In this document: positions 201 through 62,625 of the stretch, in pieces
Layout: every line of letters begins with the position of its first letter
Position numbering within the stretch: position 1 is the stretch's first letter
Program-made: the position numbers and the translations under genes
The notes under the pieces: model-generated
What the model was told of the DNA's origin: nothing
What the model saw: only the letters and a program-made list of their open reading frames with translations
The model's database searches: none
Assembly: GCA_021780675.1 (NCBI GenBank)
Contig: JAJXYH010000004.1
Span: 5,668-69,667, forward strand
Source of the DNA: a bacterium
GTDB taxonomy: Bacteria > Patescibacteriota > Microgenomatia > Levybacterales > UBA12049
DNA length: 64,000 nt
Reading direction: 5' to 3'

Positions 201-617
201 TTAACTCACCGCTTTTTTAATAAGCCTTACGATTTCCGCTTCCTCTTTTGCCGTTATTTTTAAAAGCGCAAAACCGGTCGGCCACATATTGCCATCGTCT
301 AAATTCGCATCGTGCTGAAACCCTAAGGTTGCGTACCTAACTTTAAATTTAACCGCATCCTGAAAAAAACAAACCACTTTACCCTGCGAGTTAGTATACG
401 CAGGCATTCCGTACCAGGTTCTTACTCCCAGTTCCGGTGCGTTTTTCCTAACCAATTCATGAATTTTTGTGGCCAAAACCTTGTCTGAACCCTTCATGGT
501 GGCAATTTTTGCTAAAACCGCTTCTTCACCGTTTCCCTTATTTGCCATAAGCTCCAAAGCACGCTGTTTCATGGCTGTTTGCTCTTCTTTTGAAAATCCT
601 TTTGCTTTTGTTGTCAT
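201..617 (-). CDS. DUF1801 (YdhG-like) domain protein
   Basis: 138 aa. Its start overlaps the upstream ArsR gene stop as ATGA. Conserved C-terminal KITAKEEAEIVRLIKKA is reminiscent of DUF1801 proteins that commonly sit beside ArsR/SRPBCC genes. Confidence 0.45.
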   Translation of the reverse strand: MTTKAKGFSKEEQTAMKQRALELMANKGNGEEAVLAKIATMKGSDKVLATKIHELVRKNAPELGVRTWYGMPAYTNSQGKVVCFFQDAVKFKVRYATLGFQHDANLDDGNMWPTGFALLKITAKEEAEIVRLIKKAVS

Positions 618-931
618 TATTTTTTCACCTCCTTTTTAACATGCTTTTCTAATCTGTCCAGTTGCGCTTCCCAAAGCCTGCGGAAATTTGCTATCCAGGT
701 ATCGATTTCTTCAAATTTCTCCGCGTTAAGCGAATAAATGCGCTGTTGAGCATCCTTTTCTACCTCCACTACCCCATAATCTGCCAAAACCTTTAAGTGT
801 TTGGAAGTTTGGGGTTGGCTCATATGGAGTTTATGCGAAATTTCACCTACGGGCGAAGGGCCACCTAAAAGGTATTCAACAATATTAAACCTGTTAACTT
901 CCGATATTATAGCCAGAGTTGAGGGGTTCAT
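617..931 (-). CDS. ArsR/SmtB family HTH transcriptional regulator
   Basis: 104 aa. Motif SHKLHMSQPQTSKHLKVLADYGVV is a classic ArsR-type winged HTH. Confidence 0.7.
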   Translation of the reverse strand: MNPSTLAIISEVNRFNIVEYLLGGPSPVGEISHKLHMSQPQTSKHLKVLADYGVVEVEKDAQQRIYSLNAEKFEEIDTWIANFRRLWEAQLDRLEKHVKKEVKK

Positions 932-1051
932 GCGGATATATTACCACACGCGTATATTCCTGTCAAGGCATATACAATTTATTCCTATAGTTTGCTGCTT
1001 TTTGTTTTTATTTATCAATAAGATTGACATACTGTGCTAAACTAATAGTTA

Positions 1052-1561
1052 ATGAGTGGAGATAGGTTTTTTGCAATTTTTGGTAAATTAGCTGTTGTTT
1101 TAATTCTGGTTGGTATTATTGCCGGCGGGGCTTACTATTTGGGAGCTAAAAACCAACCCCAAAAGGAAACCCAAACGAAAAACACTGTTAAAACTACAGT
1201 TACTCCGACAATCACCCCTCAAGTTACAACTGCGGCAAATATAACTCCAGAGCCAACCGTTGATGAAACTGCTGCTTTAAGCTTAGCCATTAAAAATGCT
1301 CTAGTTACAGAACATGGAAGCGTTGCAAACGACTTAAACATTACCGTATCTAAAATTAAAGGCGATTATGCCTCCGGCGCTGCATCGCAGCAAGGCGGAG
1401 GCGGTATATGGTATGCGGCTAAGGTAAACGGTGTTTGGAAACTGGTATGGGACGGAAATGGATTTATCTCCTGCTCTAACTTAACTAATTATCCAAACTT
1501 TCCTACCAGCATGATTCCCCAGTGCTACAACGATCAAGCTAAAGCAATCGTAAATAGATAA
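1052..1561 (+). CDS. hypothetical membrane-anchored/secreted protein with Thr/Pro-rich linker
   Basis: N-terminal hydrophobic segment, then TVKTTVTPTITPQVTT low-complexity linker, then a Cys-containing C-terminal domain. Confidence 0.4.
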   Translation: MSGDRFFAIFGKLAVVLILVGIIAGGAYYLGAKNQPQKETQTKNTVKTTVTPTITPQVTTAANITPEPTVDETAALSLAIKNALVTEHGSVANDLNITVSKIKGDYASGAASQQGGGGIWYAAKVNGVWKLVWDGNGFISCSNLTNYPNFPTSMIPQCYNDQAKAIVNR

Positions 1562-1927
1562 TTATTTAGAAGTTTTAGAAGACTTTACAAACCAAACCGC
1601 AAGAGGCAACAGAAATGTTAATCCGTAGTAAATAATCACATCTAATTTATAATAATCTACAGGGTGTAAAAGTTTTACCAAGAAAACATAATCAAACGTT
1701 ACGGCGACAACCAGCCAAACAATTGCAATGGATAAATAATATTCCAAGTCTTTTTCTTTAATTTTTTTAAACAAAATCCAAAGCGTTAATGCTATGCCAA
1801 ACGGCATAATTGCCAAACCTAAGTAATTTTGGGGCAAGAAGGTAAAAAAGATAATACCGAGGATGTAACCAAACAGCCAAAGCAAGAATCCGTAGCCAAA
1901 TGCATGGAATAAGAATTTCTTGTCCAT
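1562..1927 (-). CDS. small polytopic membrane protein, unknown function
   Basis: 121 aa with 4 predicted hydrophobic helices. Confidence 0.4.
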   Translation of the reverse strand: MDKKFLFHAFGYGFLLWLFGYILGIIFFTFLPQNYLGLAIMPFGIALTLWILFKKIKEKDLEYYLSIAIVWLVVAVTFDYVFLVKLLHPVDYYKLDVIIYYGLTFLLPLAVWFVKSSKTSK

Positions 1928-1973
1928 AAAGCTAAGATCTATTATAACAAATTAAATATGATAAGATAGTTGC

Positions 1974-2483
1974 ATGAAATTTTGGCTAACGTACGTATTA
2001 ATAATTGGTGTGTTAGTTATAAGCTCAACGTCTTTATACATTGATTCCCAAAAAAAGCCTCAAATTGCCTCACCTTTAATTATAAATGTAAATTCGTTCC
2101 CCCCAACCCTTACCCCAACGCCTACACCCACTCCTACGCCAACACCAACGCCTACACCCACTCCTACGCCAACACCAACGCCGATTCCCATCACGTCTTC
2201 CGATCTTGATTCGCTTTTTACTAAATATGGAAACTACTATAGTGTTGATGTAAATTTACTTAAGAAAATTGCTGCCTGTGAATCAGGCTTTAATCCAAAT
2301 GCTATATATGGCGATTATCTGGGGATGTTCCAATTTTCTTCGGGCGCCTGGATAAACAGCCGCGCTTTAATGGGACAGGATTCAAATTTAGATTTAAGAA
2401 GAAATCCCGAAGAATCAATTAAAACCGCTGCTTTTAAAATCTCGAGGGGCGAAGCATCAGCCTGGCCGGTGTGCGGAAAATAG
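1974..2483 (+). CDS. Rpf/transglycosylase-like domain protein (membrane-anchored, (TP)n linker)
   Basis: Motif AACESGFNPNAIYGDYLGMFQFSSGAW resembles the resuscitation-promoting-factor/lysozyme-like transglycosylase domain (CESGG...GLFQFS...W). N-terminal TM plus TPTPTP repeat linker. Confidence 0.6.
   Translation: MKFWLTYVLIIGVLVISSTSLYIDSQKKPQIASPLIINVNSFPPTLTPTPTPTPTPTPTPTPTPTPTPTPIPITSSDLDSLFTKYGNYYSVDVNLLKKIAACESGFNPNAIYGDYLGMFQFSSGAWINSRALMGQDSNLDLRRNPEESIKTAAFKISRGEASAWPVCGK
2113..2180 (+). repeat. tandem 30-nt coding repeat encoding the (TP)n linker
   Basis: aacgcctacacccactcctacgccaacacc repeated twice in tandem inside the Rpf-like CDS. Confidence 0.6.
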
Positions 2484-2505
2484 GCCTTAAGCAGTTTTTC
2501 CCATA

Positions 2506-3266
2506 CTACGTGCTATAGCAAATCTGGTTAATTAATGTTACATTATTTGTAGTAATAATAATTCTCCCGCCTTTCTTAATTACGCTTAATGCATCTTTTG
2601 GTCTGTTTATTGTCCACACATTTATAGGAAAATCTACACCTTTAGAACTGTTAAAACTAAGAATTTCATCCGTTACGTTGTTTCCAATTTCTACTGTTGC
2701 TCCGCGTCCAACTACACCCCCTCTAATCCAGTTTTCCGCCCTTTGAAAATAATCTTCAATATTGGATTCATCTACGTTAAAAACGACTAATTTTTGAGGA
2801 GAACTTTCAATTTCATCCAAAAAAGAAAATGTTCCGCCCGAATATGTAACTAAACTGTCTTTGGGCATAAGAAGATCTACTTGTTGTTTAAATAATTTAA
2901 ATCCCTTCTGGTCGTTTCCGCCTATTTTAATATCCAAAGCTATGCCCTTGCCAGAACCGAGAACTTTTTCCAAAACTGTTTTGAAAGCCTGTTCTTTTTT
3001 TGCAACTTACTTAAGGCGTTAAAATCACCCAATGTGTGCACAACATATAATCCATTACTATTCCCCACATCTACCTCAATTAACCCTGATTTATCATCAA
3101 GGGCTGTATTCAGTAACTCCAGATTATCGGCTGCGTTATGAGCAGAGGTATAAACATTTGGATTTTGTTTTAATGCTTCATAAAATTGCTCTAAACTAAC
3201 CGTCTCGTAATCTTGCGAACCCTTAAGAAAAAAGAGCAGCGAGACAGCTGCTACACCTAGCAGCAA
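2506..3266 (-). pseudogene. glycerophosphodiester phosphodiesterase (GDPD) family gene disrupted by a frameshift in an A7 homopolymer
   Basis: Two overlapping ORFs (2940-3266 and 2506-2973) in different frames. The N-terminal part has HNAADNLELLNTALDDKSGLIEVDV...VVHTLGD (GDPD-like). The C-terminal part has VDFPINVWTINRPKDA...GGRIIITTN (GDPD C-terminal WTVN...GVDGIITD-like). The frames join at the run of 7 A at 2995-3001 (minus strand); one extra A would restore a ~253 aa protein. Confidence 0.55.
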
Positions 3267-3340
3267 TGCTTTCCTTCTTGAAATAGGTAAATTTAAAGCA
3301 TTAAAAAGTGCTTATGAATAATTTGTAGGCTTTTCGTTCA

Positions 3341-4477
3341 TTAAGCTTTGTTATTAATTATTTTACTAAGCGGTTCCAATGTTATCAGAAAAAAAGTAAT
3401 TAAGGTTGCTAAAAACTGCGAGCTATCCAGAAAATTTTTAATTAATCCTCCGCCCGAAAGCAAATTGCCGTTAAAACTAATAAGAAGAAGCGGCAAAATA
3501 AATATCCATCTTTTTTGCCCTAATTTAATGATTAAAAATGGTAAAATCACGGCAAAATAATATTGCCAGGGAGTCGGGAAAATTAACAACAAAAGGCAAA
3601 GTAAAGCAATTGCAATTTCAACTTGATTATTGCTCTTTATTTTTTTCACTTGATATAAAAAAATCAGCAGTAAACTAAATATACCAAGCGCAAATGCAAT
3701 ATACCCGAATGATAAAAATTTAATTTCTATACCAAGCCTTGCAAAAGAAGATGAAAAAGATTGGTTAACAATAGCAGGATCAACCGCAGTCGAAACTCTT
3801 GAAGTTACTCCCTGAATTTCTTTTAAATAATAACTCCAGATGTTTAATGGCAAAATAATTATGCTTATTACCAAACCCAATACCAAACTTGCCAGCGGCA
3901 TTAAAATATCTTTAAGTTTTGTTTTACCAAAAAGAAGTCCCGGTATTACCACAGCCGGATAAATTTTTAATAGCACCGAAACTGTAAAAAAGAATTGTCT
4001 TAAATACTTATTTTTAAAAATCCAAAGACTGTAAATCCCTAAGGTAACCAAACCCATCGGATTTCCCCCACCCAACGAATAAGTTAGAGGAAATGAAAAT
4101 GAAATTAATGAAAGTAAAATCCAAAACAACGGTGTGATTTTTTTTAAAAAATGTTTCCAAAGTAAATAGAAAACAATAAAGAAACTTGCCAAATTAACAA
4201 AAGTAATAAGCACTTCTGCAATTTTTAAAGAAAAAATGGTAAAGGGAAGAAATGGCAATAATACAAATGGCGGACCGAAAGAATTATGAACTATGTAGGA
4301 AAGATCGGGACTAACACTAAATAAATTATGAATTACGCGGTAATAACCGTAGAAATCAGGCAAAATGCCAATCTTGAAAATTATTTCAATTAGTTTGTAT
4401 AAACGTATACTCCAAAAAACCAGGAAGATAAAAAATGAAATTTTAATTAATACTTCTTGGTTAAATTTTGCTTTCAC
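3341..4477 (-). CDS. polytopic membrane protein, possibly GT-C type glycosyltransferase (DUF2029/PMT-like)
   Basis: 378 aa with >10 hydrophobic helices. No catalytic motif could be verified by eye. Confidence 0.35.
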   Translation of the reverse strand: MKAKFNQEVLIKISFFIFLVFWSIRLYKLIEIIFKIGILPDFYGYYRVIHNLFSVSPDLSYIVHNSFGPPFVLLPFLPFTIFSLKIAEVLITFVNLASFFIVFYLLWKHFLKKITPLFWILLSLISFSFPLTYSLGGGNPMGLVTLGIYSLWIFKNKYLRQFFFTVSVLLKIYPAVVIPGLLFGKTKLKDILMPLASLVLGLVISIIILPLNIWSYYLKEIQGVTSRVSTAVDPAIVNQSFSSSFARLGIEIKFLSFGYIAFALGIFSLLLIFLYQVKKIKSNNQVEIAIALLCLLLLIFPTPWQYYFAVILPFLIIKLGQKRWIFILPLLLISFNGNLLSGGGLIKNFLDSSQFLATLITFFLITLEPLSKIINNKA

Positions 4478-4512
4478 TTCCCAAATTATAGCACGGGAAG
4501 AATTTTACTGTA

Positions 4513-4767
4513 CTAACTTAAATCTTTTTTTAATTGTTCAAACTCTTTTTTATTTATTTCCCCCTTTGCGTAACGTACTTTTATTATGTCTATATATGAA
4601 TATTCCTCAATAAGATCGTTTTCTTCCTTTCTTTCCCCTTTATGAGAAAAGAAGAAAGAAAAAAATAAAATTGCAAGAATAATAAAAATTACAAATATAA
4701 ATACTCCTGGAAGAAAAGATGAATATTGCGGGTAAGCATATTGTGGGTAAGTGTAATAATGCATCAT
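4513..4767 (-). CDS. SHOCT domain membrane protein
   Basis: C-terminal IDIIKVRYAKGEINKKEFEQLKKDL matches the SHOCT short C-terminal motif. N-terminal TM. Confidence 0.6.
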   Translation of the reverse strand: MMHYYTYPQYAYPQYSSFLPGVFIFVIFIILAILFFSFFFSHKGERKEENDLIEEYSYIDIIKVRYAKGEINKKEFEQLKKDLS

Positions 4768-4850
4768 TTTTGTTTCACCTCCTTTAAACTCAAAATAGCT
4801 TAACTTTCTGAGAAAACGCTGAACATGAAATTAAAAATAGTATTAAATCT

Positions 4851-5021
4851 TTAGAGGTTATGAAAAAACCTTAAGTAAAAAGCTATAAACACCAATACGA
4901 TTCCAACATTTACTATTAGCCGTTCCCAAAAGTGATTTCTAAAAAATAATAAATCCACAGAAACTATAACAACTATTATCAGCAAAATTACTACTGAAAC
5001 AATTGGTTTAACCGAACCCAT
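4851..5021 (-). CDS. unannotated small membrane protein (56 aa), hypothetical
   Basis: ORF below the 60-aa track cutoff: MGSVKPIVSVVILLIIVVIVSVDLLFFRNHFWERLIVNVGIVLVFIAFYLRFFHNL. Two hydrophobic helices. Confidence 0.3.
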   Translation of the reverse strand: MGSVKPIVSVVILLIIVVIVSVDLLFFRNHFWERLIVNVGIVLVFIAFYLRFFHNL

Positions 5022-5372
5022 ACAGATAATTTATATCTAAAACGTGGTACTGTCAACAATAATGCTCCCACTCCTACCCCAAGTCCAATACCTACGCCTA
5101 TTACCTCAAACGATCTGGATTCACTTTTTACAAAATATGGTAACTTTTATAGCGTTGATGTAAATTTACTTAAGAAAATTGCTGCCTGTGAATCAGGCTT
5201 TAATCCAAATGCTATATATGGCGATTATCTGGGAATGTTTCAATTTTCATCAGGAGCATGGATAAACAGCCGCGCTTTAATGGGACAGGATTCAAATTTA
5301 GATTTAAGAAGAAATCCGAAGGAATCAATAAAAACCGCTGGTTTTAATTGCATCAAGAGTATTCATAAATAA
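4998..5372 (+). pseudogene. 5'-truncated duplicate of the Rpf/transglycosylase-like gene (no start codon or signal peptide)
   Basis: 5060-5345 is ~95% identical at nucleotide level to 2170-2440. The reading frame is open from the TGA at 4995 to the TAA at 5370-5372, with no in-frame ATG/GTG/TTG before the domain. The C-terminal end diverges from the first copy. Confidence 0.6.
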
Positions 5373-5457
5373 GTAATTAATAGAGAATAATCGTTAACGG
5401 GGGAAAGTGTAAGTGATTTTAAAAGTCTATTGCTCTTAAAGGCACATTGGGGCAAGG

Positions 5458-5889
5458 TTAAAATTTATCTGTTTTAGGTTCAGAAATTCCTTCTATCCAT
5501 AGCGGTATTTTGTCTTTTGGGTCTCCATTATTATAGTTAAATGTTATTTCGTCATTTTTTTTAATATTATTTAATGCAATAAAATCAATTGTTTTGTTTT
5601 TTTGTCTAATCCTGTATTTTGCATTTGGTTTATATGTATGGTTATATATTGACCCAAAACCCAAAGCAATTGCCAGACGTTCTTTATTTTTACCAAAATA
5701 GAAAAAATAAGTAACCAAAATACTTTCATTTAGATTAGCCATGTCAAATTTTGGCAGTTCAATAATTGGGCATCTTTCGATAATTTCATCTTTCTTTATA
5801 TCACGTCTGGCAAAAACCCCCAGCCCCGCATTAAGAATTTTTGATTTATCTACATAAACCTTATCCGATGCTGCAATTTTATTCATCAT
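5458..5889 (-). CDS. SET domain protein (lysine methyltransferase-like)
   Basis: Motifs GLGVFARRDIKKDEII, NHTYKPNAKY (NHSCxPN-like) and DEITFNY are typical of the SET domain. Confidence 0.65.
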   Translation of the reverse strand: MMNKIAASDKVYVDKSKILNAGLGVFARRDIKKDEIIERCPIIELPKFDMANLNESILVTYFFYFGKNKERLAIALGFGSIYNHTYKPNAKYRIRQKNKTIDFIALNNIKKNDEITFNYNNGDPKDKIPLWIEGISEPKTDKF

Positions 5890-5917
5890 AAGATTATAAC
5901 AGAAGTTGAATTAAGGC

Positions 5918-6050
5918 TAATTTGCTCCGTGACTAGGGCTTCCTTCGCGCAAGGCACTCAGGATTGCTTCTTGGAAGTTTACTTCTCGTCCTAGTCAAAA
6001 TCACAAAAATAGCCACCACATGGATTGAGCTCTGCGATCCTAGAATTATT
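5918..6050 (+). repeat. repeat element A: begins with a 14-nt exact copy of the tRNA-Asn 3' end (gctccgtgactagg at 5924-5937); homologous to element B at 7048-7200
   Basis: Shared scaffold with element B: taa-ttgctccg-gactagg, ..., tcctag-aaa-cacaaaaa-ag-cacc, ..., gagctc-g-g. GACTAGG/CCTAGTC form a long-range inverted repeat. Confidence 0.5.
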
Positions 6051-6150
6051 ATAACTGCAAAAGTAATAGAATCCTTCCAGAATCTAAGCTATATCGGGGA
6101 ATTGAGGCAGAGGTGGAAGGAGATTAAAAAGCTACAATTAAACCCTGCTT

Positions 6151-6981
6151 TTATTGCGCGAATTTGAAAGTAGAAAGAATTTCTTGAAATTTAGCAAGAT
6201 TACTAGGGTCATTACTTAAAACCTCAATTAAATATGTCTTCCCATCTTTATAGACCACTACGACTTTACCTTCTAATTTAATTAGACCATCAGTTCCACC
6301 AAGATTTTCAATAACAGCTGGTATTCCGCCTACAGTTATCTGGTTTGGTTGTGATACTGTTTTAGGGTTTTGTTTACTAAGAGCATCATTTAAGGATTTA
6401 TCGCCTGTATTTACACTAATAGAACCAATGCCAAGGTCATTTAAGAAAGTTTCACCAAAAATTATGTCACTTTTTGAATAAGAACTTATTTTTGCTTTCC
6501 ATGGGCTTGGTAGTATAAAACTATAACCTCCATCGTTATTAATAATTCTATTTCCCTCAATAATAACAGGGGTTGTAGGTTTTGGCGAAACTTCATATAC
6601 ACCAGGGGTGACACTAGTTGATTTAGAAATATTTCGTGAACCTATAAGCGCAGCGGAAAATATTACAACTATTCCTACTATTATCAAAATAACTGGCAAC
6701 AAAGTTAATAATAACTTAACCCATCTAGGCCATTTTGTTGCAAACCACATAACAATTAATCCCATTGGATATATAGACAAAAGCAAAAATATAGCTATTA
6801 AGGTTCCAAAAATGTTATTTTGGTGGGATTCAGGAACGGAAGGGGTACTAGGGCTTGGAGGTTGACCATTTAGTGCCTGCGTACCTTGAGGCGGAATAGT
6901 TTCATTTTCAACAATAATAGGGTTTGGCACTTGAGTTGTAGCTTGAACAGAATTTTCTTCCATAAGGTAATCATCAAACAA
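6151..6981 (-). CDS. membrane-anchored protein with extracytoplasmic domain, hypothetical
   Basis: 276 aa. Pro/Ser-rich N-terminus, one long hydrophobic region, then a soluble C-terminal domain. Confidence 0.4.
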   Translation of the reverse strand: MFDDYLMEENSVQATTQVPNPIIVENETIPPQGTQALNGQPPSPSTPSVPESHQNNIFGTLIAIFLLLSIYPMGLIVMWFATKWPRWVKLLLTLLPVILIIVGIVVIFSAALIGSRNISKSTSVTPGVYEVSPKPTTPVIIEGNRIINNDGGYSFILPSPWKAKISSYSKSDIIFGETFLNDLGIGSISVNTGDKSLNDALSKQNPKTVSQPNQITVGGIPAVIENLGGTDGLIKLEGKVVVVYKDGKTYLIEVLSNDPSNLAKFQEILSTFKFAQ

Positions 6982-7047
6982 TTTTATTAATAAATCAAGC
7001 TCGAAGTTATAATAAAGGGCTGATAGTTACCCTTAAGGGTGGTAAAT

Positions 7048-7200
7048 ATAACTTGCTCCGCGACTAAGTTCTTAGGAGAATCTTCATTCGCTACGCTCAT
7101 TTCGAGACTCGGTCTTGCGATAATTCCTATCCTAGAAACCACAAAAAAAGTCACCGAAATGGTGACTTGTTTTGTGAGCTCCGAGGGATAGACGACGTTA
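7048..7200 (+). repeat. repeat element B: starts with a degenerate copy of the tRNA-Asn 3' end (gctccgcgactaag at 7055-7068); homologous to element A
   Basis: See element A. It contains the terminator hairpin at 7143-7175. Confidence 0.45.
7143..7175 (-). terminator. rho-independent terminator downstream of the Nudix gene (bidirectional hairpin)
   Basis: gtcacc-gaaat-ggtgac stem-loop flanked by a T-run on the minus strand (aaaaaaa on plus just upstream) and by ttgttttgt on plus. Confidence 0.5.
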
Positions 7201-7204
7201 GAAC

Positions 7205-7588
7205 CTATTTAAACAATTCAGGAAACCAGTCTCTGTTATCAGCAAACATTTGATTATAGGGAATCTTGTCAAAGTCAAACCATTTAAGTTCCTTTATACT
7301 TATTTCTTTGGGTTTAATTTCTCCATCCCATGTACTTGTTTTAAAGATAATCAATTTAATGTCTGAATTTAGTTCTTTAACTTTTGTTAAATCTTCCCTG
7401 TTTATTTTAATAAATGTTTCTTCGTTAAACTCTCTTGCCACTGCATCTTCAAGAGATTCCCCCTTATTAACAAATCCGCCAATGCCATTCCATTTCTGGT
7501 CATTTGAAGAATAATGAATTTTAGCAAGAAGAATTTTTTTATCTTTAACAATAAAACATACAACACCAATTCTTTTATCCATAAACAA
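7205..7588 (-). CDS. Nudix hydrolase
   Basis: Nudix box GGFVNKGESLEDAVAREFNEETFI (GX5EX7REUXEEXGU). Confidence 0.75.
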   Translation of the reverse strand: MFMDKRIGVVCFIVKDKKILLAKIHYSSNDQKWNGIGGFVNKGESLEDAVAREFNEETFIKINREDLTKVKELNSDIKLIIFKTSTWDGEIKPKEISIKELKWFDFDKIPYNQMFADNRDWFPELFK

Positions 7589-7627
7589 ATTATATCAGAG
7601 GTTCTAATATACTACTCGGGGTGAACC

Positions 7628-7702
7628 TGGCTCCGTGACTAGGACTCGAACCTAGAACCTTGTCGTTAACAGCGACCTGCTCTACCATTGAGCTATCACG
7701 GA
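7628..7702 (-). tRNA. tRNA-Asn (anticodon GTT), CCA encoded
   Basis: Manual fold: acceptor TCCGTGA/TCACGGA, D-arm GCTC-AATGGTA-GAGC, anticodon loop CTGTTAA, T-arm CTAGG-TTCGAGT-CCTAG, 3' GCCA. Confidence 0.8.
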
Positions 7703-7754
7703 ATGTATTAAGATTTTATCAATTATAAGTTTTAAAATCTAGTATTTTAATGTT

Positions 7755-8327
7755 TTATCTTTCAACTACTGAAAACCTTACTTTAAAAGGGAGTCTTCCA
7801 TCTGGAATAGGGTCTCTTGGATATGGACTTACAAATCTAACAATAATGATTTGGTTAATCGGAATGTGGATTCTTGGGAATTCATGATCCTCAACGCCTG
7901 AATCTAACAAAACATCATTAAGAAGACCAGGTAGTAAATCCGGGTCTTCCCTAAATCTTTCTAAAAGAGATACGAATCCTTCTACTTTTCTATGCAATCC
8001 ATTACTTCTGCCGGATTTAAATTCTACCATTTCCATTAAACAAAAATTTCTGCTTAAAAGAAGTGCATCTGGTCTAGCTTCTGCTGAAAGATGACGCCTT
8101 CCCAAAGCCTCGTCAAGCATATGTGGACCCACACCAATAAAACGCTGGTTTCTTTTCATTATTTCAACAAACCCCTCTTCTTCATATGAATCTCCGTTGG
8201 AATGCGTTCTTTTACCAATTAGATCTATTCCTTTTGAAACAATAATTAATTTGGGGCAAATAGTTTCCGCAGTTTGATATGCAGTTCTATGCTGTGGCAG
8301 GCCGATATCTTGTTCTCTTTCCGACAC
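7755..8327 (-). CDS. hypothetical protein (no recognisable family)
   Basis: 190 aa ORF adjacent to tRNA-Asn. Composition looks less AT-rich than neighbours. Confidence 0.35.
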   Translation of the reverse strand: MSEREQDIGLPQHRTAYQTAETICPKLIIVSKGIDLIGKRTHSNGDSYEEEGFVEIMKRNQRFIGVGPHMLDEALGRRHLSAEARPDALLLSRNFCLMEMVEFKSGRSNGLHRKVEGFVSLLERFREDPDLLPGLLNDVLLDSGVEDHEFPRIHIPINQIIIVRFVSPYPRDPIPDGRLPFKVRFSVVER

Positions 8328-8415: not shown

Positions 8416-8991
8416 ATGGAGTCTTCCAGACGAATTGAGGCGGGAAATGATGGTTTTCACCCGAAGCCTGAATTAACTACTGTGCCCAAGCAACCAGCAA
8501 AAATAACCATATTCAAAGCTCCCAGACCAATATTAACAGACACTGCAACACATGAGCCAATATATGCCGGATTAATTACACCGGAGGGGTTTAATAGTTT
8601 AGAGGGAAATATGCAAGAAGCGGTTTTACTAAATTTAATGGAAACCGATAATAAAGATCAAATCAGAAAATTAAGGCCGGATTTTGAAATAGATAGACCA
8701 TTAACTTACGATGAAAAAAGACTTTCCGAATGGACAGCAAGCATTACTTCGCATGAAGAACCGATTCTTGCCCCACGGATAGAAATAGAGGATGGATTAT
8801 TCGCTCAAATTCATCATACAGTTTATTATGATTTTGAAAAAAGAGAAGATTTAGCGGTAGTCTTAGAAAGAGAAAGACAAAGAAGAATACAGTTTACGCC
8901 GGGACAATTTGCACCATCTGAAAATTTAGGTAAATACTCCGCAGCAATTCGTTATCGCGGAAACCTTGAAAGACAAATTCAAAATAAATAA
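8416..8991 (+). CDS. hypothetical protein
   Basis: 191 aa ORF divergent from 7755-8327. Confidence 0.35.
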   Translation: MESSRRIEAGNDGFHPKPELTTVPKQPAKITIFKAPRPILTDTATHEPIYAGLITPEGFNSLEGNMQEAVLLNLMETDNKDQIRKLRPDFEIDRPLTYDEKRLSEWTASITSHEEPILAPRIEIEDGLFAQIHHTVYYDFEKREDLAVVLERERQRRIQFTPGQFAPSENLGKYSAAIRYRGNLERQIQNK

Positions 8992-32370: not shown

Positions 32371-33510
32371 TTACTGTATCGGCCTAACCGGTACAAGCCA
32401 GTACCAACCAGTACCACCTAGGTATGCAGAATACCATTTAAATTCATTAGACAAAGACGTACAGCCATTTGGATCTCTCACGTGTATATCCACACCTCCT
32501 GAGGAATTAATTCTAACATCATCAACAACAAAAGAATGACCTCCATTAATTGGGGGCCAATAAGCACCAGCAAACAATAGATATCCATTGCTCAAATAAC
32601 TTTTAGCTTGTGTGTAATTTATTGATTGAGAACCAGACTTTAGATTTACGTGTGGATCTTCATATCCAAGAGACTTAAACCAGTTATCTTTTTGGGTAGA
32701 AAATGTCCAAAAACTTGTTCCCGTACGACCGCTTCCCGGTAGGTTGGACCACCCGTTTGTGTCAAAATCAGCCGCAATTTCTGCAGGTCCATGCGTGTCG
32801 CAATAGCTACTCATAATCATTGCCAAGCTGGTTGGGCCACAACCGGTACTAGCAATTGTTCCCGAATCAAAACGCCTACTTGAATAACTTTGCCCCCACT
32901 GACAATAAAATTTATTTGTTGGAGAAGCTTTGCAACCCGAACCTGGTGGTGTGGATGAGGACCCCGAACCGGGAGGCAGGCAACAGATTAAACCCTGCCC
33001 ACAAACTAACCCTCCGGTATCTTGTACCATTGGGGGAGTCAAGGTTGTGCAATCAGTGCCGGCAGGCTTACATAAAGAACCTGTAACGGATGAGCATTGT
33101 GTTGATTGGTTATTAGCTGTTGTTGTTGGTTGACCAGTAATAACAGTTATGATTGCAGTAAAAATGATTACCACCAGTATAACTACTACCACAATTAAAA
33201 CAGGAATAATCCAGGCAGGTGCAGAAGAGACAATTACCGTAGCAATTCGTCTTTTAACCTCTTTTTTTACCCTATCTTCCAGTTTGTTTTTTGCAGCACC
33301 ACCGATATTTCTTAACGTTCCTCCTCCTGGAATGTTGCCACCACTCTGTCTTCCAGACGCTTCGTCGTTGGTGTTACCGCTCCCTATATTTCCCGTAAGA
33401 TTTCTGGACAACCTATTAATTTTAACACCCTGTTTTAAAGTGTTTGGTTTATTTACGCCCTGTTTTAAGGTGTTAGGTGTAGGTTTTCCCGAACTACTAC
33501 TGTCTGCCAT
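32371..33510 (-). CDS. membrane-anchored C39-like/CHAP-like cysteine peptidase domain protein (candidate cell-wall hydrolase of the T4SS-like locus)
   Basis: CQWGQSY...STGCGPTSLAMIMSSY (Cys nucleophile in a C39/CHAP-like context) and a downstream GGHSFVVDDV His. N-terminal tandem repeat KPNTLKQGV x2, one TM, Cys-rich linker. Confidence 0.5.
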   Translation of the reverse strand: MADSSSSGKPTPNTLKQGVNKPNTLKQGVKINRLSRNLTGNIGSGNTNDEASGRQSGGNIPGGGTLRNIGGAAKNKLEDRVKKEVKRRIATVIVSSAPAWIIPVLIVVVVILVVIIFTAIITVITGQPTTTANNQSTQCSSVTGSLCKPAGTDCTTLTPPMVQDTGGLVCGQGLICCLPPGSGSSSTPPGSGCKASPTNKFYCQWGQSYSSRRFDSGTIASTGCGPTSLAMIMSSYCDTHGPAEIAADFDTNGWSNLPGSGRTGTSFWTFSTQKDNWFKSLGYEDPHVNLKSGSQSINYTQAKSYLSNGYLLFAGAYWPPINGGHSFVVDDVRINSSGGVDIHVRDPNGCTSLSNEFKWYSAYLGGTGWYWLVPVRPIQ

Positions 33511-33529
33511 AAATTAATAATACCAGATT

Positions 33530-35392
33530 TTAATCATTTACAATGTTTGGATGTGGTGAAGACGCAGGCATTGGGTCCGGAAGCTCAATGGGTTCTTCTT
33601 GCGGATTTTCTTCAACAACATCCTCAACCTCTTGCGGCTTCTTATCCTTATCTTGCGGATTAGTAGAAATCATATCATGTTCAAAAGGCGCTGCAACTAC
33701 TTGCATTGCAACGTGATTTTGCCCTGCGAAAAACAAACCCTCACCAATATTTGCAGACAGGAGTAGTTGCTTTTCTCCAACAGTTAAATAAAAAATATCA
33801 GCAATCATATCAACCTCTGCAGGACTTTGTTTTAAAAGCATTTGGATAGAAGAGTTGGAAAGCACAGCTTTTCCATAGTCGGTTGATAAAAAATCTTCGG
33901 CATCTTGAGTTGCTGTAGTTAATGCAAGATAGTATTTTCTTGCTCTTTTAGCAACACCATACACAAATGAGGCGGAATCTTCATGCTTCATCATATACCA
34001 GGCTTCATCAAGAATTAATAAGCGTTTTTTTAGGGTTTTTCTTACCTTTGTCCAAACAAAATCTAAAATTATATGCATTGCAATTGGTCTTAATTCATCC
34101 TCCAAAGCCTTAATATTAAAAACCGTAAAAGGATTGGTAATATCAAAGTTCGACTGTTGGTTAAAAAGGCCGCTTAGGCTTCCTTTAATAAATCTTTCCA
34201 GGCGTAAAGCAAGGTCTTTAGCCGCGTTATCTTCCATTCCCAAAAGAACTTTATAAAGATCTTCCATTAGTGGTGGGGTTTTCTTTTGTGTTTCAGGGTC
34301 GGTGGTAATTCCTTTTAATCTGTATGTTTCAACGAGTGCCCTATCTAAAATTGCATCATGTTGAGCATCAAGCTCACCAAGGACTATTTTTAAAAGTCCG
34401 TGTAGGGATAAGATTTTTAAACCAAGTTCATTTTCATCTTTTTCATAAAGTCCGGAAAGATCAAATGGGTTGATTTTTATATTTGAGCTTGATGCAAAAG
34501 TTACCTCCTCGCCACCCACAAGCTCTGATAATTTAGAATATTCACCTTCAGGATCTATGATTATGATTTCTGCACCAAACATAAAATTTCTTAATGCCTC
34601 AAGCTTAATTAAATATGATTTTCCCGCCCCCGATTTTCCAAACACAACTTCATTCGCGTTTTCCAAACTGAATCTATCAAAAATGATTAATGAACCGTTT
34701 TGTTGGTTTATCCCATACATGATTCCTTTATCTTGGGCCAAAATGGCTGAGGTAAAAGGAAAGGTTGAAGCAAGCGATGTGGTATCCATATTCCTGGTTA
34801 TAAAAAGCTTATCTTGACCAAGTGGGATGGTAGACTTAAACCCTTCTTCCATTTGAAGGGTTGCGGGTTTTGGAACCATAAGGATTGAGCTTAGTGTGGT
34901 TGTAAGTTTTTTAGAAGCTTCGTTTAAGTCCTCCAATTTTTCGGAAAAAAGCGTAATATAAAGACTAAATTGGAAAAATCTTTCCATGCCTTTAGCAAGT
35001 TCTTCTTGAACCGCAAGAGCATCTTCTAAAGAGGCGGAAACCTTTGGGTCTACCTGAAGACCTTCTTCTTCCTGAGAATAGATAGTCGCCTCCATTTCGG
35101 TAATTTTTCTTCTAAGATCTGATAAAACATCTGCAGAAGAAGTTGGATATAAGAACATAGAGACATTCATTGAATGATCAAAATTAATTAATGGCTCGAG
35201 CCAGTTTGCGGAAACAAACCTCGGATACCCAACAACAAACAAAGTTTTGTAATATTTTTCTCCTACGCGAATATGGTTAAAGTCTACTTCAACAGAAGGA
35301 GGCGCGATAACATCAGGAATAGAAACCAAATCTCGCTTGATATCTGGTTGTGCATCGTCGTTTTTTACAGTATTTTTTTTGCCGAAAGTCAT
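33530..35392 (-). CDS. virB4: VirB4/TrbE/CagE-family type IV secretion ATPase (ATPase part)
   Basis: IRVGEKYYKTLFVVGYPRFVSANWLEPL motif, Walker A FGKSGAGKSY, Walker B LLILDEAWYMM (DEAW). Confidence 0.75.
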   Translation of the reverse strand: MTFGKKNTVKNDDAQPDIKRDLVSIPDVIAPPSVEVDFNHIRVGEKYYKTLFVVGYPRFVSANWLEPLINFDHSMNVSMFLYPTSSADVLSDLRRKITEMEATIYSQEEEGLQVDPKVSASLEDALAVQEELAKGMERFFQFSLYITLFSEKLEDLNEASKKLTTTLSSILMVPKPATLQMEEGFKSTIPLGQDKLFITRNMDTTSLASTFPFTSAILAQDKGIMYGINQQNGSLIIFDRFSLENANEVVFGKSGAGKSYLIKLEALRNFMFGAEIIIIDPEGEYSKLSELVGGEEVTFASSSNIKINPFDLSGLYEKDENELGLKILSLHGLLKIVLGELDAQHDAILDRALVETYRLKGITTDPETQKKTPPLMEDLYKVLLGMEDNAAKDLALRLERFIKGSLSGLFNQQSNFDITNPFTVFNIKALEDELRPIAMHIILDFVWTKVRKTLKKRLLILDEAWYMMKHEDSASFVYGVAKRARKYYLALTTATQDAEDFLSTDYGKAVLSNSSIQMLLKQSPAEVDMIADIFYLTVGEKQLLLSANIGEGLFFAGQNHVAMQVVAAPFEHDMISTNPQDKDKKPQEVEDVVEENPQEEPIELPDPMPASSPHPNIVND

Positions 35393-36051
35393 TTTTCCAA
35401 TACCTCCTGCTCTGATGGCTTAACTAAATTTTCCGCCTGCTCAAAGTTAATATTGGCATCGTTAAATATTTCATAAAAAAGTTTTACTAATTTTTCCTTT
35501 CCCAGTATTTCAGCTCTTAAATTAACTCTTCCTATTTGGTTTAATAATCCTTCTGCTTTTGAGTGTAGGGCAGATTTTGCGCCAACCGCAAATAAATTTT
35601 GCTCAGAATTGACTCCCATTTGTTGAGAAACTCCACCGATACCGCTTTCCAAAGAAGAATAATAAATCACAATATAGAATTTTTTGTCAAGAATGGTATT
35701 AACCTTCACAAGTTCGGAGATAAAATCTTTATACATTGAGATATATTTTGAGAATAATGGATTTTTTGATTGTTGTGCCTCGTCTGCTAAGAGCTTTATA
35801 TACGATGAAATATTTACCCTTTTACTTCTTATGATTATTTGTACAGGGTAGGATATTGAATTCAAAAGCGCAGCATAAGCATAAATTTTAGCATCCTGTT
35901 CGTCAGGTGAAAGAAGTGCAAAGTTCGTGGCACTTATTTCAAGGACAATACATGCATAACCACCATTTAAAATTACCACATCATCAACAATATCCTGGAT
36001 TTCGGTAAATTTTTGGGTTGAGTTAGATAATTTTTGGGCAGAGCCTTTCAT
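35389..36051 (-). CDS. VirB4 N-terminal-domain-like protein (probable split N-terminal part of VirB4)
   Basis: The pattern VDDVVILNGGYACIVLEISATNFALLSPDEQDAKIYAYAALLNSISYPVQIIIRSKRV follows the CagE_TrbE_VirB N-domain logic. ATGA overlap with the downstream ATPase ORF. Combined length ~840 aa, close to canonical VirB4. Confidence 0.4.
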   Translation of the reverse strand: MKGSAQKLSNSTQKFTEIQDIVDDVVILNGGYACIVLEISATNFALLSPDEQDAKIYAYAALLNSISYPVQIIIRSKRVNISSYIKLLADEAQQSKNPLFSKYISMYKDFISELVKVNTILDKKFYIVIYYSSLESGIGGVSQQMGVNSEQNLFAVGAKSALHSKAEGLLNQIGRVNLRAEILGKEKLVKLFYEIFNDANINFEQAENLVKPSEQEVLEK

Positions 36052-37382
36052 TAATTAAAAAGAGACCTCCTTAATTCTTCTCTTGTATCTATTGATATAA
36101 TTTCAAGCGGCATAATTATTTCACCGGACGCTTTAAATCCTACCGTTTCAAACTTATTTTGTCCTCTTGGATCTTCAAATTCTATACTATAGTCACCGTC
36201 TGTAAGAGCAGTTGCAGAAGCAAATTGTCCCAAAGCGTTTGTTTTAAATGCCCTGACGGCATTTCCCTGTAAATCTTTTACCTCAACCAATATATTTGGT
36301 AGGGGGTTTCCTCTTGGATCTTTAACGATACCAGAAATAACATTTGGAAATTCAGGGGCAGCAACTAAACCAACACTTTTGGTTAAGTTTTGCGGAATAC
36401 TTCTCACTAATTTTGCTTCCTGTGGTTGTAGTTGTGCAATTTGTGGTATAGCAATATTTTGATTTTGCGAAGTCATTTGCTTTTGAATTTGTACTAATTT
36501 ATCTTCAAGTTGTTGTTTTTGAAGCTGCATATCGCTTAAGCTTTGCTGAAGTTCTAAAACTTTTTGATGGGCTTCTAAAAATTGTTTTTCATCTTGCTGC
36601 GAAACTGTTTGTAATGGCGCAGGTTGCGGCGGAGCGGGTAGTGGAGTAGTGGCTGTATCCGGTTTAGGCTTTAACTGCTGTGAGACGTCTTGAATTATTT
36701 CCGGAGTTTTTATTGTGGTGTCTATGGTATTTATAGCTGCTGCTGGTTTAACAGGGCTTGTAATATTGGGTAAAGTTGCCAGCTGTTCCACCGCTTCAGG
36801 TTGCGGAGCTTGATTTGAGTATGCGTGCTGCGGAATATAGCTCGGTAGGTTAACAGGCGTTCCACTTTTTTGATAATGATCAACATTTTGTAAAAACACC
36901 ATTTCTTTTTGGTCAAGCTTGCTGGCTGATTTGGGAAGTGTTTTCAAAAAACTTTGAAGCTGCTGATCGGACATATCAGAAATAGTTTGACGTTTTTTTG
37001 CAAAGTCACTAATTTTTTTTACCTCTTGTTCTTGTAACCCCTCCGAACCCTGTTGATAAATATATTGAGTAGGCTTAGTTAGGGCTTTTATTAAATGCGT
37101 TATCATTACATCAAGCGGCCTTCCGTCTATTGGTAAAAATGCCAAAGAGGCTCCCATAGCGGCAGAAAGAACAGCAAGGGGTATTTTAAGTAGAAAAAAA
37201 AGCGGAGAAATGTAAAAAACCCAAGCAACTATAAATCCCGCAGTAAGGTAGCCGAATTGTTTTATGGTCATACTCCCAATTAGTTTAAACTGGAATCCCG
37301 TAATGTCTTGTGGTATCGGATGGTTTTCGATGTCCATATAAAAAAGCATATAACGTGAAAAATCTGGTTTCAAGAGAATCAA
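36051..37382 (-). CDS. PrgI/VirB3-like membrane protein fused to Q/P-rich coiled region and a C-terminal carboxypeptidase-regulatory-like (transthyretin-fold) domain
   Basis: N-terminal IPQDITGFQFKLIGSMTIKQFGYLTAGFIVAWVF resembles the PrgI family. C-terminal GIVKDPRGNPLPNILVEVKDLQGNAVRAFKTNALGQFASATALTDGDYSIEFEDPRG resembles the CarboxypepD_reg fold. ATGA/ATG overlap with the next gene. Confidence 0.45.
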   Translation of the reverse strand: MILLKPDFSRYMLFYMDIENHPIPQDITGFQFKLIGSMTIKQFGYLTAGFIVAWVFYISPLFFLLKIPLAVLSAAMGASLAFLPIDGRPLDVMITHLIKALTKPTQYIYQQGSEGLQEQEVKKISDFAKKRQTISDMSDQQLQSFLKTLPKSASKLDQKEMVFLQNVDHYQKSGTPVNLPSYIPQHAYSNQAPQPEAVEQLATLPNITSPVKPAAAINTIDTTIKTPEIIQDVSQQLKPKPDTATTPLPAPPQPAPLQTVSQQDEKQFLEAHQKVLELQQSLSDMQLQKQQLEDKLVQIQKQMTSQNQNIAIPQIAQLQPQEAKLVRSIPQNLTKSVGLVAAPEFPNVISGIVKDPRGNPLPNILVEVKDLQGNAVRAFKTNALGQFASATALTDGDYSIEFEDPRGQNKFETVGFKASGEIIMPLEIISIDTREELRRSLFN

Positions 37383-37431
37383 AGTGGGTCAAAAGTCTTT
37401 GAAAGTATATCTAAATTTCCGTGAAAAATTC

Positions 37432-37752
37432 TTATCCGCAAGTTCTGAATGAGAATTCAAATGAAGTGGTGTCAATACACCCAACCCCTGTTACACTTCC
37501 TATAAATTTAATGATGAAAAATGACAGCATTACTAAAACTAACCCTAACACGGCAAAGGCAATTGTTTTTCTGGCTTGGTCAAGTTTCTTGGGATCACCC
37601 CCCGAAACTAAAAACCGTATTCCACCTATGATAATAACAATTACGGCAATAGATCCGGACAGTAAAATTCCCCAGTAAATAAAATTTAATATTATTATTG
37701 GTATACAACTAATTGTTGCAACCCCATTAGAACTACACGTTCTCCAGTCCAT
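37432..37752 (-). CDS. VirB2/TrbC-type T4SS pilin-like protein (short paralog)
   Basis: Shared C-terminal module: TM...SGGDPKKLDQARKTIAFAVLGLVLVML. Confidence 0.55.
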   Translation of the reverse strand: MDWRTCSSNGVATISCIPIIILNFIYWGILLSGSIAVIVIIIGGIRFLVSGGDPKKLDQARKTIAFAVLGLVLVMLSFFIIKFIGSVTGVGCIDTTSFEFSFRTCG

Positions 37753-37803
37753 GATTTAAGCTTAAAAGAAATAAAAACAAATTGCAAGTAGGTTTAGTTA
37801 TGT

Positions 37804-38202
37804 TTAGAAAGCTGTGGAGCCATTAATGTTTGGAATGACGACATTAGACAATGTATTAAGTCCAAAGAACTGGAGTATTAAGTTCAAAACCAAGTATGAA
37901 AGGAATATGATTACCAAACCAACGATTGCTGCAACAATATGTTCTCTAGCCGAAGCAACAGCTTGTTTGTCTCCGCCGGATGTTAACCATTTAAATCCTC
38001 CCCAAACAAGATAGAGAAGTGCAACTAAAATTGCTACTGCAAAAATTAAAGCAATCACAGTACCAACGATTGAACCGATATTATTGGAGCTTAAAGCACA
38101 AAGATGATTATATGGTCCTGCACATGCATCAACAGCAAAAGCAGGAACTGTAACTGTAAGAAATACTGCTGCGGGGGTAACCAGTGCGATTGCTTTTTTC
38201 AT
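37804..38202 (-). CDS. VirB2/TrbC-type T4SS pilin-like protein
   Basis: Signal peptide (AFA-VD). C-terminal LYLVWGGFKWLTSGGDKQAVASAREHIVAAIVGLVIIFLSY. Confidence 0.6.
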   Translation of the reverse strand: MKKAIALVTPAAVFLTVTVPAFAVDACAGPYNHLCALSSNNIGSIVGTVIALIFAVAILVALLYLVWGGFKWLTSGGDKQAVASAREHIVAAIVGLVIIFLSYLVLNLILQFFGLNTLSNVVIPNINGSTAF

Positions 38203-38271
38203 GTATATATTTATACTAATAAAGTTTTGATTTGTTTGTCAAGTACCAATTTAGCTTCAATTTAACATTAA

Positions 38272-39003
38272 TTAAAGAGTCGGTACGTTAAAAAACTGTA
38301 AGATAAGATTTACAATCAAAGCAGCAAGAAATACTATAATCAAACCAACGATTGCAAAAATAACTTTTTGTCTGGCAGAGGTTAAAGTCTGTTTGTTTCC
38401 ACCGGACATTAACCAGTCAAATCCTCCCCAGACCAGGTAAAAAAGCGCAAGAAGAATTGCAATTACAAACAAAATGTTTATTCCGAAGGCAAGAGCAGTA
38501 TTGTATTTTACAATAGGTACTCCGCCCGGCTGTCGCGCTTTAAAGAAATTTGCCAAAGTATCTAAAGCAACTGCGGGATTAACTTCGCCCCAATTCCCCC
38601 AACTGTTACCGGTTTGAGTACCATTATTATTTGAAATACATCCTGCAGAATGATCACATTTGTCTCCGGTTGAGCAGGTTAATGTTATTATATTGCAGGT
38701 TGTTCCTTGTGGGGCACCACTGCTTGGAAAGCAATTCTGAGTGGTTCCTTCCCAGTTGCAGTTTTGTGGACAGGTTTTACAATTCCCGCCAGAAGCAACA
38801 CAACAAACTCCCAATCCACCCTGACCACCTAATGAACAGACCCTAGTACTATCAACATATTGATTCGCTTGGCCACAAGTTGTTACACCGTTTGCTACGC
38901 AATCCAGGCATCCTGGAGGAAGGAGCGCTCCTTGGGCAACAGGGGTTTTAATCACGAAAATAAATAATAATAAAAAACTAAAAAAATAAAATAATTTTTT
39001 CAT
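38272..39003 (-). CDS. VirB2/TrbC-type pilin-like protein with Cys-rich N-terminal ectodomain
   Basis: Signal peptide, ~25 Cys in the ectodomain. C-terminal FYLVWGGFDWLMSGGNKQTLTSARQKVIFAIVGLIIVFLAAL. Confidence 0.6.
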   Translation of the reverse strand: MKKLFYFFSFLLLFIFVIKTPVAQGALLPPGCLDCVANGVTTCGQANQYVDSTRVCSLGGQGGLGVCCVASGGNCKTCPQNCNWEGTTQNCFPSSGAPQGTTCNIITLTCSTGDKCDHSAGCISNNNGTQTGNSWGNWGEVNPAVALDTLANFFKARQPGGVPIVKYNTALAFGINILFVIAILLALFYLVWGGFDWLMSGGNKQTLTSARQKVIFAIVGLIIVFLAALIVNLILQFFNVPTL

Positions 39004-39005
39004 AA

Positions 39006-40454: not shown

Positions 40455-40479
40455 AACTTAAATAAAATGCAAGTATAGT

Positions 40480-44282: not shown

Positions 44283-44286
44283 TTAT

Positions 44287-46071: not shown

Positions 46072-46305
46072 ATTAATTACAGTTTGTATGATTTTTATTT
46101 GCTTGTCAAGTTTAAGATGAAGAGTAGTATAAATTATTTTATATGCATGCGCGGGATAATTCCTTTCCCAAATAGTATAAGGCAGGATTTAAATACTCTG
46201 TCAAATAGGTTTAAAAAATTATTATATTGCAGAATTTCTGCGGATATTCTGCATAATTTAAGCAACTTATTAAATTTAACAAATAAAAGATAAGGCTTAA
46301 ATTAG

Positions 46306-62576: not shown

Positions 62577-62625
62577 ATAAAAAAGGATTAGATTGTATTA
62601 TCAACCTAATCCTTTAATTTGTGGA
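62575..62625 (+). repeat. 51-bp direct repeat copy 2: tmRNA terminator hairpin (62581-62617) plus tmRNA 3' end
   Basis: See 61591-61641. Confidence 0.75.

Follow-up and report, generated by a model that had tools for sequence, protein, structure and literature searches.

In a 64-kb window (64,000 nucleotides of contig JAJXYH010000004.1, assembly GCA_021780675.1) of an uncultivated bacterium of the Levybacterales (Patescibacteriota, Microgenomatia), the 3' end of an intact tRNA-Asn gene recurs twice downstream of the gene. Each copy closes a short element without open reading frame (ORF), here named A (distal to the tRNA) and B (proximal to it). Rather than RNA genes, A and B are probably attR-type junction repeats at the DNA level, left at a hot spot for insertions at the 3' end of tRNA-Asn. 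The tRNA-Asn gene is the anchor of this hot spot, and the feature as a whole is of a known kind, i.e. small integrase-less nested insertion scars at a tRNA gene, which varies in that the gene modules hold one gene each, the terminator modules have no ORF and a pseudo-tRNA site is conserved. One of two readings put forward in the initial annotation of the window had been nested att-site relics of tRNA-targeting elements, and this reading is supported by the trailer of the distal copy, the allele of the middle copy, the replaced gene content and the modules found behind GGAGC elsewhere.

Copies of the tRNA-Asn 3' end and probable displacement of its trailer

The tRNA-Asn (GTT) is located on the minus strand at 7628-7702 (ARAGORN; Rfam tRNA, 67.5 bits; trailer comparison), its 3' end being placed at 7628 or 7631 depending on the caller. 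On this strand it is followed by a Nudix gene (7582-7205), element B, a gene for a 270-aa membrane protein (6963-6151), element A and a SET gene (5889-5458). The copies bracket the Nudix and the membrane-protein genes, as first described. The plus-strand 14-mer GCTCCGTGACTAGG has two exact occurrences, 5924-5937 and 7630-7643, and one that differs in two positions, 7055-7068, all in the same orientation; motif matching recovers both the exact copy and the 12/14 copy of the initial annotation. The distances of 0.6 and 1.7 kb given there are correct as values, but their order was swapped: B lies 575 nt and A 1,706 nt from the tRNA 3' end.

With up to three mismatches to the 14-mer, the 64-kb window (GC content low, 35.6%) contains four matches against a shuffle mean of 1.15, and four were reached in 1 of 100 shuffles. 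An exact copy together with a two-mismatch copy, both downstream, co-oriented and within 1.7 kb, has a chance probability of roughly 1e-7 under uniform composition. No other close copy of the tRNA 3' end exists within the window. A chance match combined with a private local duplication in this genome, without wider meaning, would agree with the shortness of the repeats (14 nt), with the lack of further copies in the window and with a blastn comparison of A and B that returns two short common blocks only. This explanation is extremely improbable: shuffles rarely reach the match count, the junction behind GGAGC is identical everywhere, and other genera as well as 71 metagenome contigs have homologous modules and sites. 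It is effectively refuted by the site family in these contigs and by the profile of foreign modules, both described below.

The copy in A, CCTAGTCACGGAGC (5918-5937, minus strand; sequence, motif matching and trailer comparison), repeats 14 nt of the tRNA 3' end exactly and continues with AAATTA(GCC). In relatives this is the native trailer of tRNA-Asn, and it is also the commonest trailer behind the 31-nt sites treated below as a-sites. The copy in B, CTTAGTCGCGGAGC followed by AAGTTA (7049-7068, minus strand; motif matching), matches the tRNA in 12 of 14 positions (7055-7068) and carries the acceptor allele TCGCGGAG, as do the tRNA-Asn genes of the related loci L008, L009 and L028; the tRNA of the window itself has TCACGGAG. 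Because B has the allele of the relatives, its two mismatches are not random decay.

Related loci (L008-L012) were reached through homologues of the neighbouring pyruvate kinase (62-72% identity); judged by such homologues, the window belongs to a bacterium of the Microgenomates group within the candidate phyla radiation. In all of them tRNA-Asn is found on the same side of the pyruvate kinase gene and in the same orientation. The stretch common to the tRNA-Asn of the window, A, B and the genes of the relatives stops at ...CGGAGC (7630), 1 base beyond the discriminator, and the window tRNA diverges from the relatives exactly behind GGAGC. The trailers that follow ...CGGAGC are AAATTAGCC in L008 and AAATTAACC in L009, others differ; the relatives' trailer AAATTA(G/A)CC is distinct from that of the window tRNA, CAGGTTCACC. 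In the window, AAATTAGCC occurs behind the ...CGGAGC of A, i.e. the native trailer of the relatives stands behind the distal repeat, the signature of DNA inserted right after GGAGC. In a side observation, the window tRNA-Asn gene encodes CCA (GGAGCCAGG) and the genes of the relatives do not (GGAGCAAAT, GGAGCATAA and others); this difference begins exactly at the putative junction after GGAGC (7628-7631).

The distal flank (5458-5917, minus strand) is conserved. It consists of a promoter and the gene for a SET-domain protein (5458-5889; Pfam SET), orthologous to the SET gene of L008 (370-849) with 62% identity. The promoter possesses an extended -10 element, TGTTATAAT, with TATAAT at 5893-5898, and the stretch is kept in L008, L090 and L091. 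Between tRNA-Asn and SET the window contains the Nudix and the 270-aa membrane-protein genes, L008 seven unrelated small genes; the gene content between the anchors is thus entirely different in the closest relative with a long contig, and the 270-aa protein lacks homology to its positional counterpart in L008. Behind its first gene, L008 carries the tRNA 3' end a second time (TCCTAGCCGCGGAGCA), preceded by an a-site and a spacer homologous to that of A, and L009 has TCGCGGAGCAAA behind a two-gene insert. The base composition of the inserted segments in the window is not clearly atypical. A co-oriented partial tRNA copy downstream of the gene, a displaced native flank and variable content between conserved flanks, three traits of a tRNA-targeting island, are present, and the comparison of tRNA-Asn loci suggested in the initial annotation has in this way yielded a displaced trailer, a foreign acceptor allele and replaced gene content. 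Contigs identical or nearly identical to the window exist in several assemblies, including GCA_021833605.1. A contig scan with pyruvate kinase as single-protein query returned only an unrelated Bacteroidia locus.

Composition of elements A and B and related modules

Each copy of the tRNA end closes a homologous module of approximately 115-145 nt without ORF, arranged on the minus strand as a (degenerate) a-site, an intrinsic terminator, a spacer of approximately 65-70 nt and the copy of the tRNA 3' end. The initial annotation missed that the elements are composite and that they reach as far as 7178-7208, where a third tRNA-Asn-like site is located, which has diverged further and is a member of a widespread family. 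This a-site, ATAGGTTCTAACGTCGTCTATCCCTCGGAGC, is 31 nt long, lies on the minus strand, overlaps the stop codon of the Nudix gene and is the single match of the family profile in the window (E 9.9e-15). As read from the sequence, it is a diverged copy of the 3' third of tRNA-Asn (AGGTTCTAGGTTCGAGTCCTAGTCACGGAGC), with about 23 of 31 positions aligned, a 2-nt deletion and mutations in both halves of the T-stem. It differs from the a-site of L008 (3307-3337) in 1 of 31 positions.

In module B the a-site is followed by an intrinsic terminator hairpin (7140-7177, minus strand), AAGTCACC-ATTTC-GGTGACTT and a T run, detected by terminator scan, inverted repeat and fold; the same feature occurs in the modules of L028 and L049. 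The spacer of B (7069-7139, minus strand) contains no ORF and, in a five-module alignment, no conserved fold. Module A has the same layout in a more decayed state. It opens with a degenerate a-like site, AATTCTAGGATCGCAGAGC (6029-6047, minus strand), which was recognized from the sequence and its alignment to the GGAGC-ending left edge of other modules and is weak if taken alone. Its body (5938-6028, minus strand; alignment and profile) is a decayed terminator-like stretch (...GGTGGCTATTTTTGTG) with a T run and a spacer homologous to the module of L008 (ACGAGAAGT..ATCCTGAGTG..GAAGGAAG). A homologous element of about 150 nt headed by each copy, as initially described, is recovered by the profile of foreign modules, although blastn between A and B gives the two short blocks only.

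The ORF-less module of terminator, spacer and tRNA-end copy is found directly behind the GGAGC of the tRNA itself in L028, whereas in window B, L049 and L008 it directly follows the GGAGC of an a-site. When a profile was derived exclusively from the modules of L008, L028 and L049, all of them foreign, its top two matches in the window were B (7045-7187) with E 1.2e-8 and A (5919-6032) with E 3.8e-4, the tRNA being third (E 0.25). A and B therefore belong to a real family, present in at least four organisms and always at this type of junction. The distribution is not that of a dispersed repeat such as a repetitive extragenic palindrome (REP) or a miniature inverted-repeat transposable element (MITE): the window possesses one a-site and two modules, all at tRNA-Asn. 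The search for further copies has a divided outcome, with none more in the window, but homologous modules elsewhere and sites in the 71 metagenome contigs. As a side observation, the tRNA-Asn gene of L028 is interrupted by a group I intron (2427-2693, minus strand, beside the 3' half of the gene; Rfam RF00028, 99.9 bits), and for this reason was not called by ARAGORN.

If A and B are junctions, the ancestral order would have been tRNA-Asn, the trailer AAATTAGCC with its promoter, and the SET gene. Short modules would have been inserted serially right behind ...CGGAGC, 1 base past the discriminator, each ending in a tRNA-Asn-3'-like site of its own, and each insertion would have displaced the older junctions away from the tRNA. 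From this we infer the order of insertion events: A would be the oldest junction, which retained the ancestral trailer; B would be younger and of foreign origin, given that it carries the acceptor allele of the relatives; and the a-site of the Nudix module, which is nearest to the tRNA, would be the youngest. The junctions may have been produced in trans by a site-specific recombinase whose gene lies elsewhere or has since disappeared, or alternatively by recombination between the conserved tRNA and site repeats. As no recombinase was found in the searches reported below, the recombination mechanism is one that we infer.

Folding of the modules

The second reading of the initial annotation, a family of tRNA-derived structured RNAs, is not supported. 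It would make A and B genes for structured small RNAs derived from tRNA, or tRNA-like processing signals in the untranslated regions of neighbouring mRNAs, and we regard it as improbable. The modules are on the transcribed strand between co-oriented genes, the family is kept in four organisms, and the 86-nt 3' part of A folds better than all of 200 shuffles (z -2.85), with a GACTAGG/CCTAGTC helix. The corresponding 92-nt stretch of B (7049-7140), in contrast, has a z-score of +0.6, and the good fold score of the whole of B stems from its terminator hairpin. The long-range GACTAGG...CCTAGTC pairing that had been regarded as shared is real in A only; B has a weaker version of five pairs, and neither B nor L008, L028 or L049 retains the helix of A. 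RNAalifold predicted 0 pairs for the five modules and, for 67 sequences of the a-site with flanks, just five invariant pairs (-2 kcal/mol) without covariation, so that the covariance and structure analysis yielded neither a consensus structure nor covariation. The T-stem of the a-site is destroyed. Between 5800 and 7800, Rfam at gathering and E-value thresholds finds the tRNA itself only, and ARAGORN makes no tRNA or tmRNA call at A or B. An acceptor-like helix between the T run behind the terminator (TTTTGTG) and CGCGGAG was considered and rejected, being mostly G-U, in a situation where a T run pairs with any purine run.

The a-site family

A metagenome scan with the pattern ATAGGTTCTAAC-N(8-38)-CCWCGGAGC matched 71 contigs, nearly all of them with the fixed 31-nt spacing. 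The a-site family is conserved across Microgenomates metagenomes. Besides the single copy in the window, a profile built from 69 distinct copies detects numerous diverged ones in the metagenome loci. In each of the 32 loci with at least two sites (32/32) the sites are co-oriented, with a median spacing of 811 nt (range 307-7857). A co-oriented ORF is located upstream of 82 of 111 distinct sites at a median gap of 3 nt, and the TAG inside ATAGG is the stop codon for 13 of 55 upstream ORFs examined, as it is in the window, where the TAG of Nudix falls within the a-site. These 55 ORFs form 51 clusters; one ORF, in L021, is homologous to Nudix and is likewise trailed by an a-site. In eight loci a co-oriented tRNA-Asn is found 0.4-10 kb upstream of the sites. 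The island of 10 kb between tRNA-Asn and the a-site in L047 contains a type I restriction-modification system, a PD-(D/E)XK nuclease and an FtsK-like gene.

Two independent branch points of assembly graphs sit at the edges of a-sites. L020 and L047, from one sample, have unrelated upstream genes and an identical a-site with 91 nt downstream; L056 and L073, from one other sample, are identical over 92 nt upstream and the site, and diverge right behind CGGAGC. The site is located less than 150 nt from the contig end in 21 of 59 whole contigs, approximately one third. As a side observation, metagenome assemblies seem to break at the 31-nt sites.

The wider a-site family suggests a cassette-like system in bacteria of the candidate phyla radiation (CPR). 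In its most specific form, this would be an undescribed integron-like cassette system of the Microgenomates, with the tRNA-Asn 3' end as primary site, the 31-nt pseudo-tRNA-Asn end (ATAGGTTCTAAC-N10-CCWCGGAGC) borne by the cassettes, crossover at or just after GGAGC, a recombinase encoded elsewhere and co-oriented single-gene cassettes with promoters of their own, among which A and B would be ORF-less 'terminator cassettes'. We put this forward tentatively, as a possibility that is rather doubtful. Literature searches yielded no description of CPR integrons, of tRNA-Asn islands in Patescibacteria or of the motif.

Alternatively, the tRNA-like sites and the promoter behind them might be portable cis-regulatory or insulator units, i.e. 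operators or terminator-promoter punctuation, spread by duplication and vertical descent without site-specific recombination. Many a-sites, like tRNA-Asn, are followed by a promoter-like trailer, AAATTAGCCTC...TTGAC, and many precede the same promoter-like stretch as the tRNA, AAATTAGCCTCAAAATTGAC or AACCTCTGRTATAAT. The primary sequence is conserved without structure, as it would be in a protein-binding site, no recombinase was found, and an a-like site occurs at the orthologous position upstream of SET in L090 and L091 with no tRNA nearby. The site, on the other hand, abuts the upstream stop codon and has no fixed distance to the downstream start, the flanking genes are unrelated and those downstream occur in both orientations. 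Neither the strict co-orientation in arrays nor the population branch points exactly at the site edges agree with such units, and there is no regulatory rationale for the exact tRNA-end copies of A and B or for the foreign acceptor allele of B. We consider this explanation unlikely.

The a-like site near SET occurs in a short form in L090 (6907-6938) and in a form about 20 nt longer in L091 (~6905-6960); the long form is also present in L008, L015 and L062. SET homologues in more distant Microgenomates, two of which have this site upstream, do not adjoin tRNA-Asn and hence provide no 'empty site'. Several module leaders contain inverted degenerate 3' ends of a second tRNA type (ACCCCGAGTAG..TTAGAACC and relatives), namely the Nudix leader of the window and, downstream of a-sites, those of L021, L030, L037 and L048. 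A dif/Xer-type site, a DNA uptake sequence and an integron attC were each considered for the 31-mer and rejected, since it forms no hairpin, is not dyad-symmetric and occurs only once in 64 kb.

Searches for a recombinase or parent element

Several observations weigh against junctions made by insertion at the tRNA. The bounded segments of the window encode only Nudix and a protein without Pfam match, and no integrase; scans for recombinase motifs in the window and in all loci were negative, and no recurring recombinase family exists among 57 large ORFs from the a-site loci. Two a-site scans of IMG/VR gave 0 matches, and the site occurs in no phage or viral contig. With a single gene each and 0.4-1.1 kb, the modules are tiny, which is unusual for tRNA-integrating islands. 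The 31-nt site is without the dyad symmetry that is usual in the core sites of simple recombinases. All contigs of the species of the window are identical, and no presence/absence polymorphism of the modules is seen among them. The branch points of the assembly graphs could also result from repeats within a single genome. Finally, the a-like sites at the orthologous position upstream of SET in L090 and L091 have no tRNA-Asn within approximately 7 kb, therefore some copies are old and vertically inherited.

A scan of IMG/VR with the tRNA 3' end found only tRNA-Gln genes in the tRNA arrays of jumbo phages. These phage contigs (L084-L087) contain arrays of 8-19 tRNA genes, in which the 18-nt pattern of the 3' end recurs in one tRNA-Gln; these contigs have no relation to the locus described here.

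Comparison with known systems

tRNA-linked islands are found in many bacteria and archaea. The locus shares with islands at tRNA and tmRNA genes an intact RNA gene with partial, co-oriented copies of its 3' end behind it, which mark off successive foreign blocks, a native flank displaced to the most distal repeat and a content that varies between relatives. It differs from them in having one gene per block (0.4-1.1 kb) and no integrase, in the ORF-less modules of terminator and spacer between the blocks, and in the usual separator of the relatives, which is the diverged, conserved 31-nt pseudo-tRNA end and not an exact repeat. In Dehalococcoides, tandem genomic islands at the tmRNA gene ssrA are bounded by direct repeats of the 3' end of the gene, and each island carries a site-specific recombinase (PMC3146451).

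Accretion of ICEs (integrative and conjugative elements), integrative and mobilizable elements (IMEs) and cis-mobilizable elements (CIMEs) at tRNA 3' ends has been reviewed (PMC5704250). Like CIMEs, the segments described here are DNA flanked by att-type repeats without recombination or transfer genes of their own, accumulated in tandem at a single attB. The differences concern a cognate element and the host. In the 71 metagenome loci and in IMG/VR, whole genomes not having been searched, neither an ICE or IME nor a phage was detected that would be the cognate element, combining this att site with an integrase. The host is a CPR bacterium, a group for which literature searches yielded no description of such elements.

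Integron arrays without integrase (clusters of attC sites lacking integron-integrases, CALIN) exist, and with integron arrays and CALIN the a-site family has in common conserved, short, co-oriented sites between single unrelated ORFs, an array anchored at one primary site, and a site that begins at or inside the stop codon. A co-oriented array is seen across the a-site family; the window itself is a two-gene instance only. In contrast to attC, the a-site forms no imperfect hairpin (RNAalifold) and lacks the GTTRRRY core; its boundary is CGGAGC|AAA, and its 5' end TTCTAAC merely resembles RYYYAAC. No intI was found, the site descends from the 3' end of a tRNA, and a tRNA gene, not attI, anchors the array. 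The pdif modules of Acinetobacter plasmids likewise comprise one or two genes bounded by short conserved sites, with the recombinase encoded elsewhere. Their pdif sites are 28-bp dyad-symmetric XerC/XerD sites in alternating orientation, unlike the a-site, which is asymmetric and always co-oriented.

Further features of the window

The tRNA-proximal cargo is a Nudix hydrolase of 125 aa (7205-7582, minus strand; Pfam NUDIX 3e-17; gene call in identical contigs). Its leader (7583-7629, minus strand; read from the sequence) is at the same time the non-native tRNA trailer, CAGGTTCACCCCGAGTAGTATATTAGAACCTCTGATATAAT. Within it lie an extended -10 box, TGATATAAT, at 7589-7597 and, on the plus strand at 7599-7627, an inverted degenerate stretch resembling a tRNA 3' end, AGGTTCTAATATACTACTCGGGGTGAACC; leaders of the same type are found in L021 (before the Nudix homologue) and in L030 (behind an a-site). 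The second cargo, the membrane-protein gene of 270 aa (6151-6963, minus strand), has no Pfam match.

Between pyruvate kinase and tRNA-Asn the window has two genes, 7755-8327 (minus strand) and 8416-8991 (plus strand), neither with a Pfam domain. Since the tRNA of L008 directly adjoins the kinase gene, both may likewise have been inserted. The 190-aa protein encoded next to the tRNA has two clusters only among 5.8 billion proteins and is useless as a synteny anchor. An ORF fragment at 5235-5372 (plus strand), between the SET gene and a small membrane ORF (4851-5021), duplicates in translation the C-terminal part of a transglycosylase-like ORF (1974-2483, plus strand) and is apparently a piece of a pseudogene. 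At approximately 33500-46100 a cluster of genes for large ATPase and membrane proteins resembles VirB4/TrbL-type secretion or pilus genes, judged by eye from the translations. A tmRNA gene (62619-63032, minus strand; Rfam, 102.8 bits) has a predicted tag peptide that is unusually long, 30 residues.

Significance

CPR bacteria have tiny genomes, and the acquisition and shuffling of their accessory genes are poorly understood. The tRNA-Asn 3' end is a recurrent entry point for one-gene modules in Microgenomates, with Nudix and membrane proteins in the window and a restriction-modification island in a relative, and a conserved 31-mer derived from the tRNA marks the borders of these modules and is amenable to direct searches. 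If no dedicated recombinase acts on the site, the locus nevertheless offers a clean case of nested att scars behind a tRNA gene. If a dedicated recombinase does act on it, the site would be a useful marker of the flexible genome in metagenome-assembled genomes, with contigs tending to break there, and the system would represent a second, independent invention of cassette-style gene capture besides integrons.

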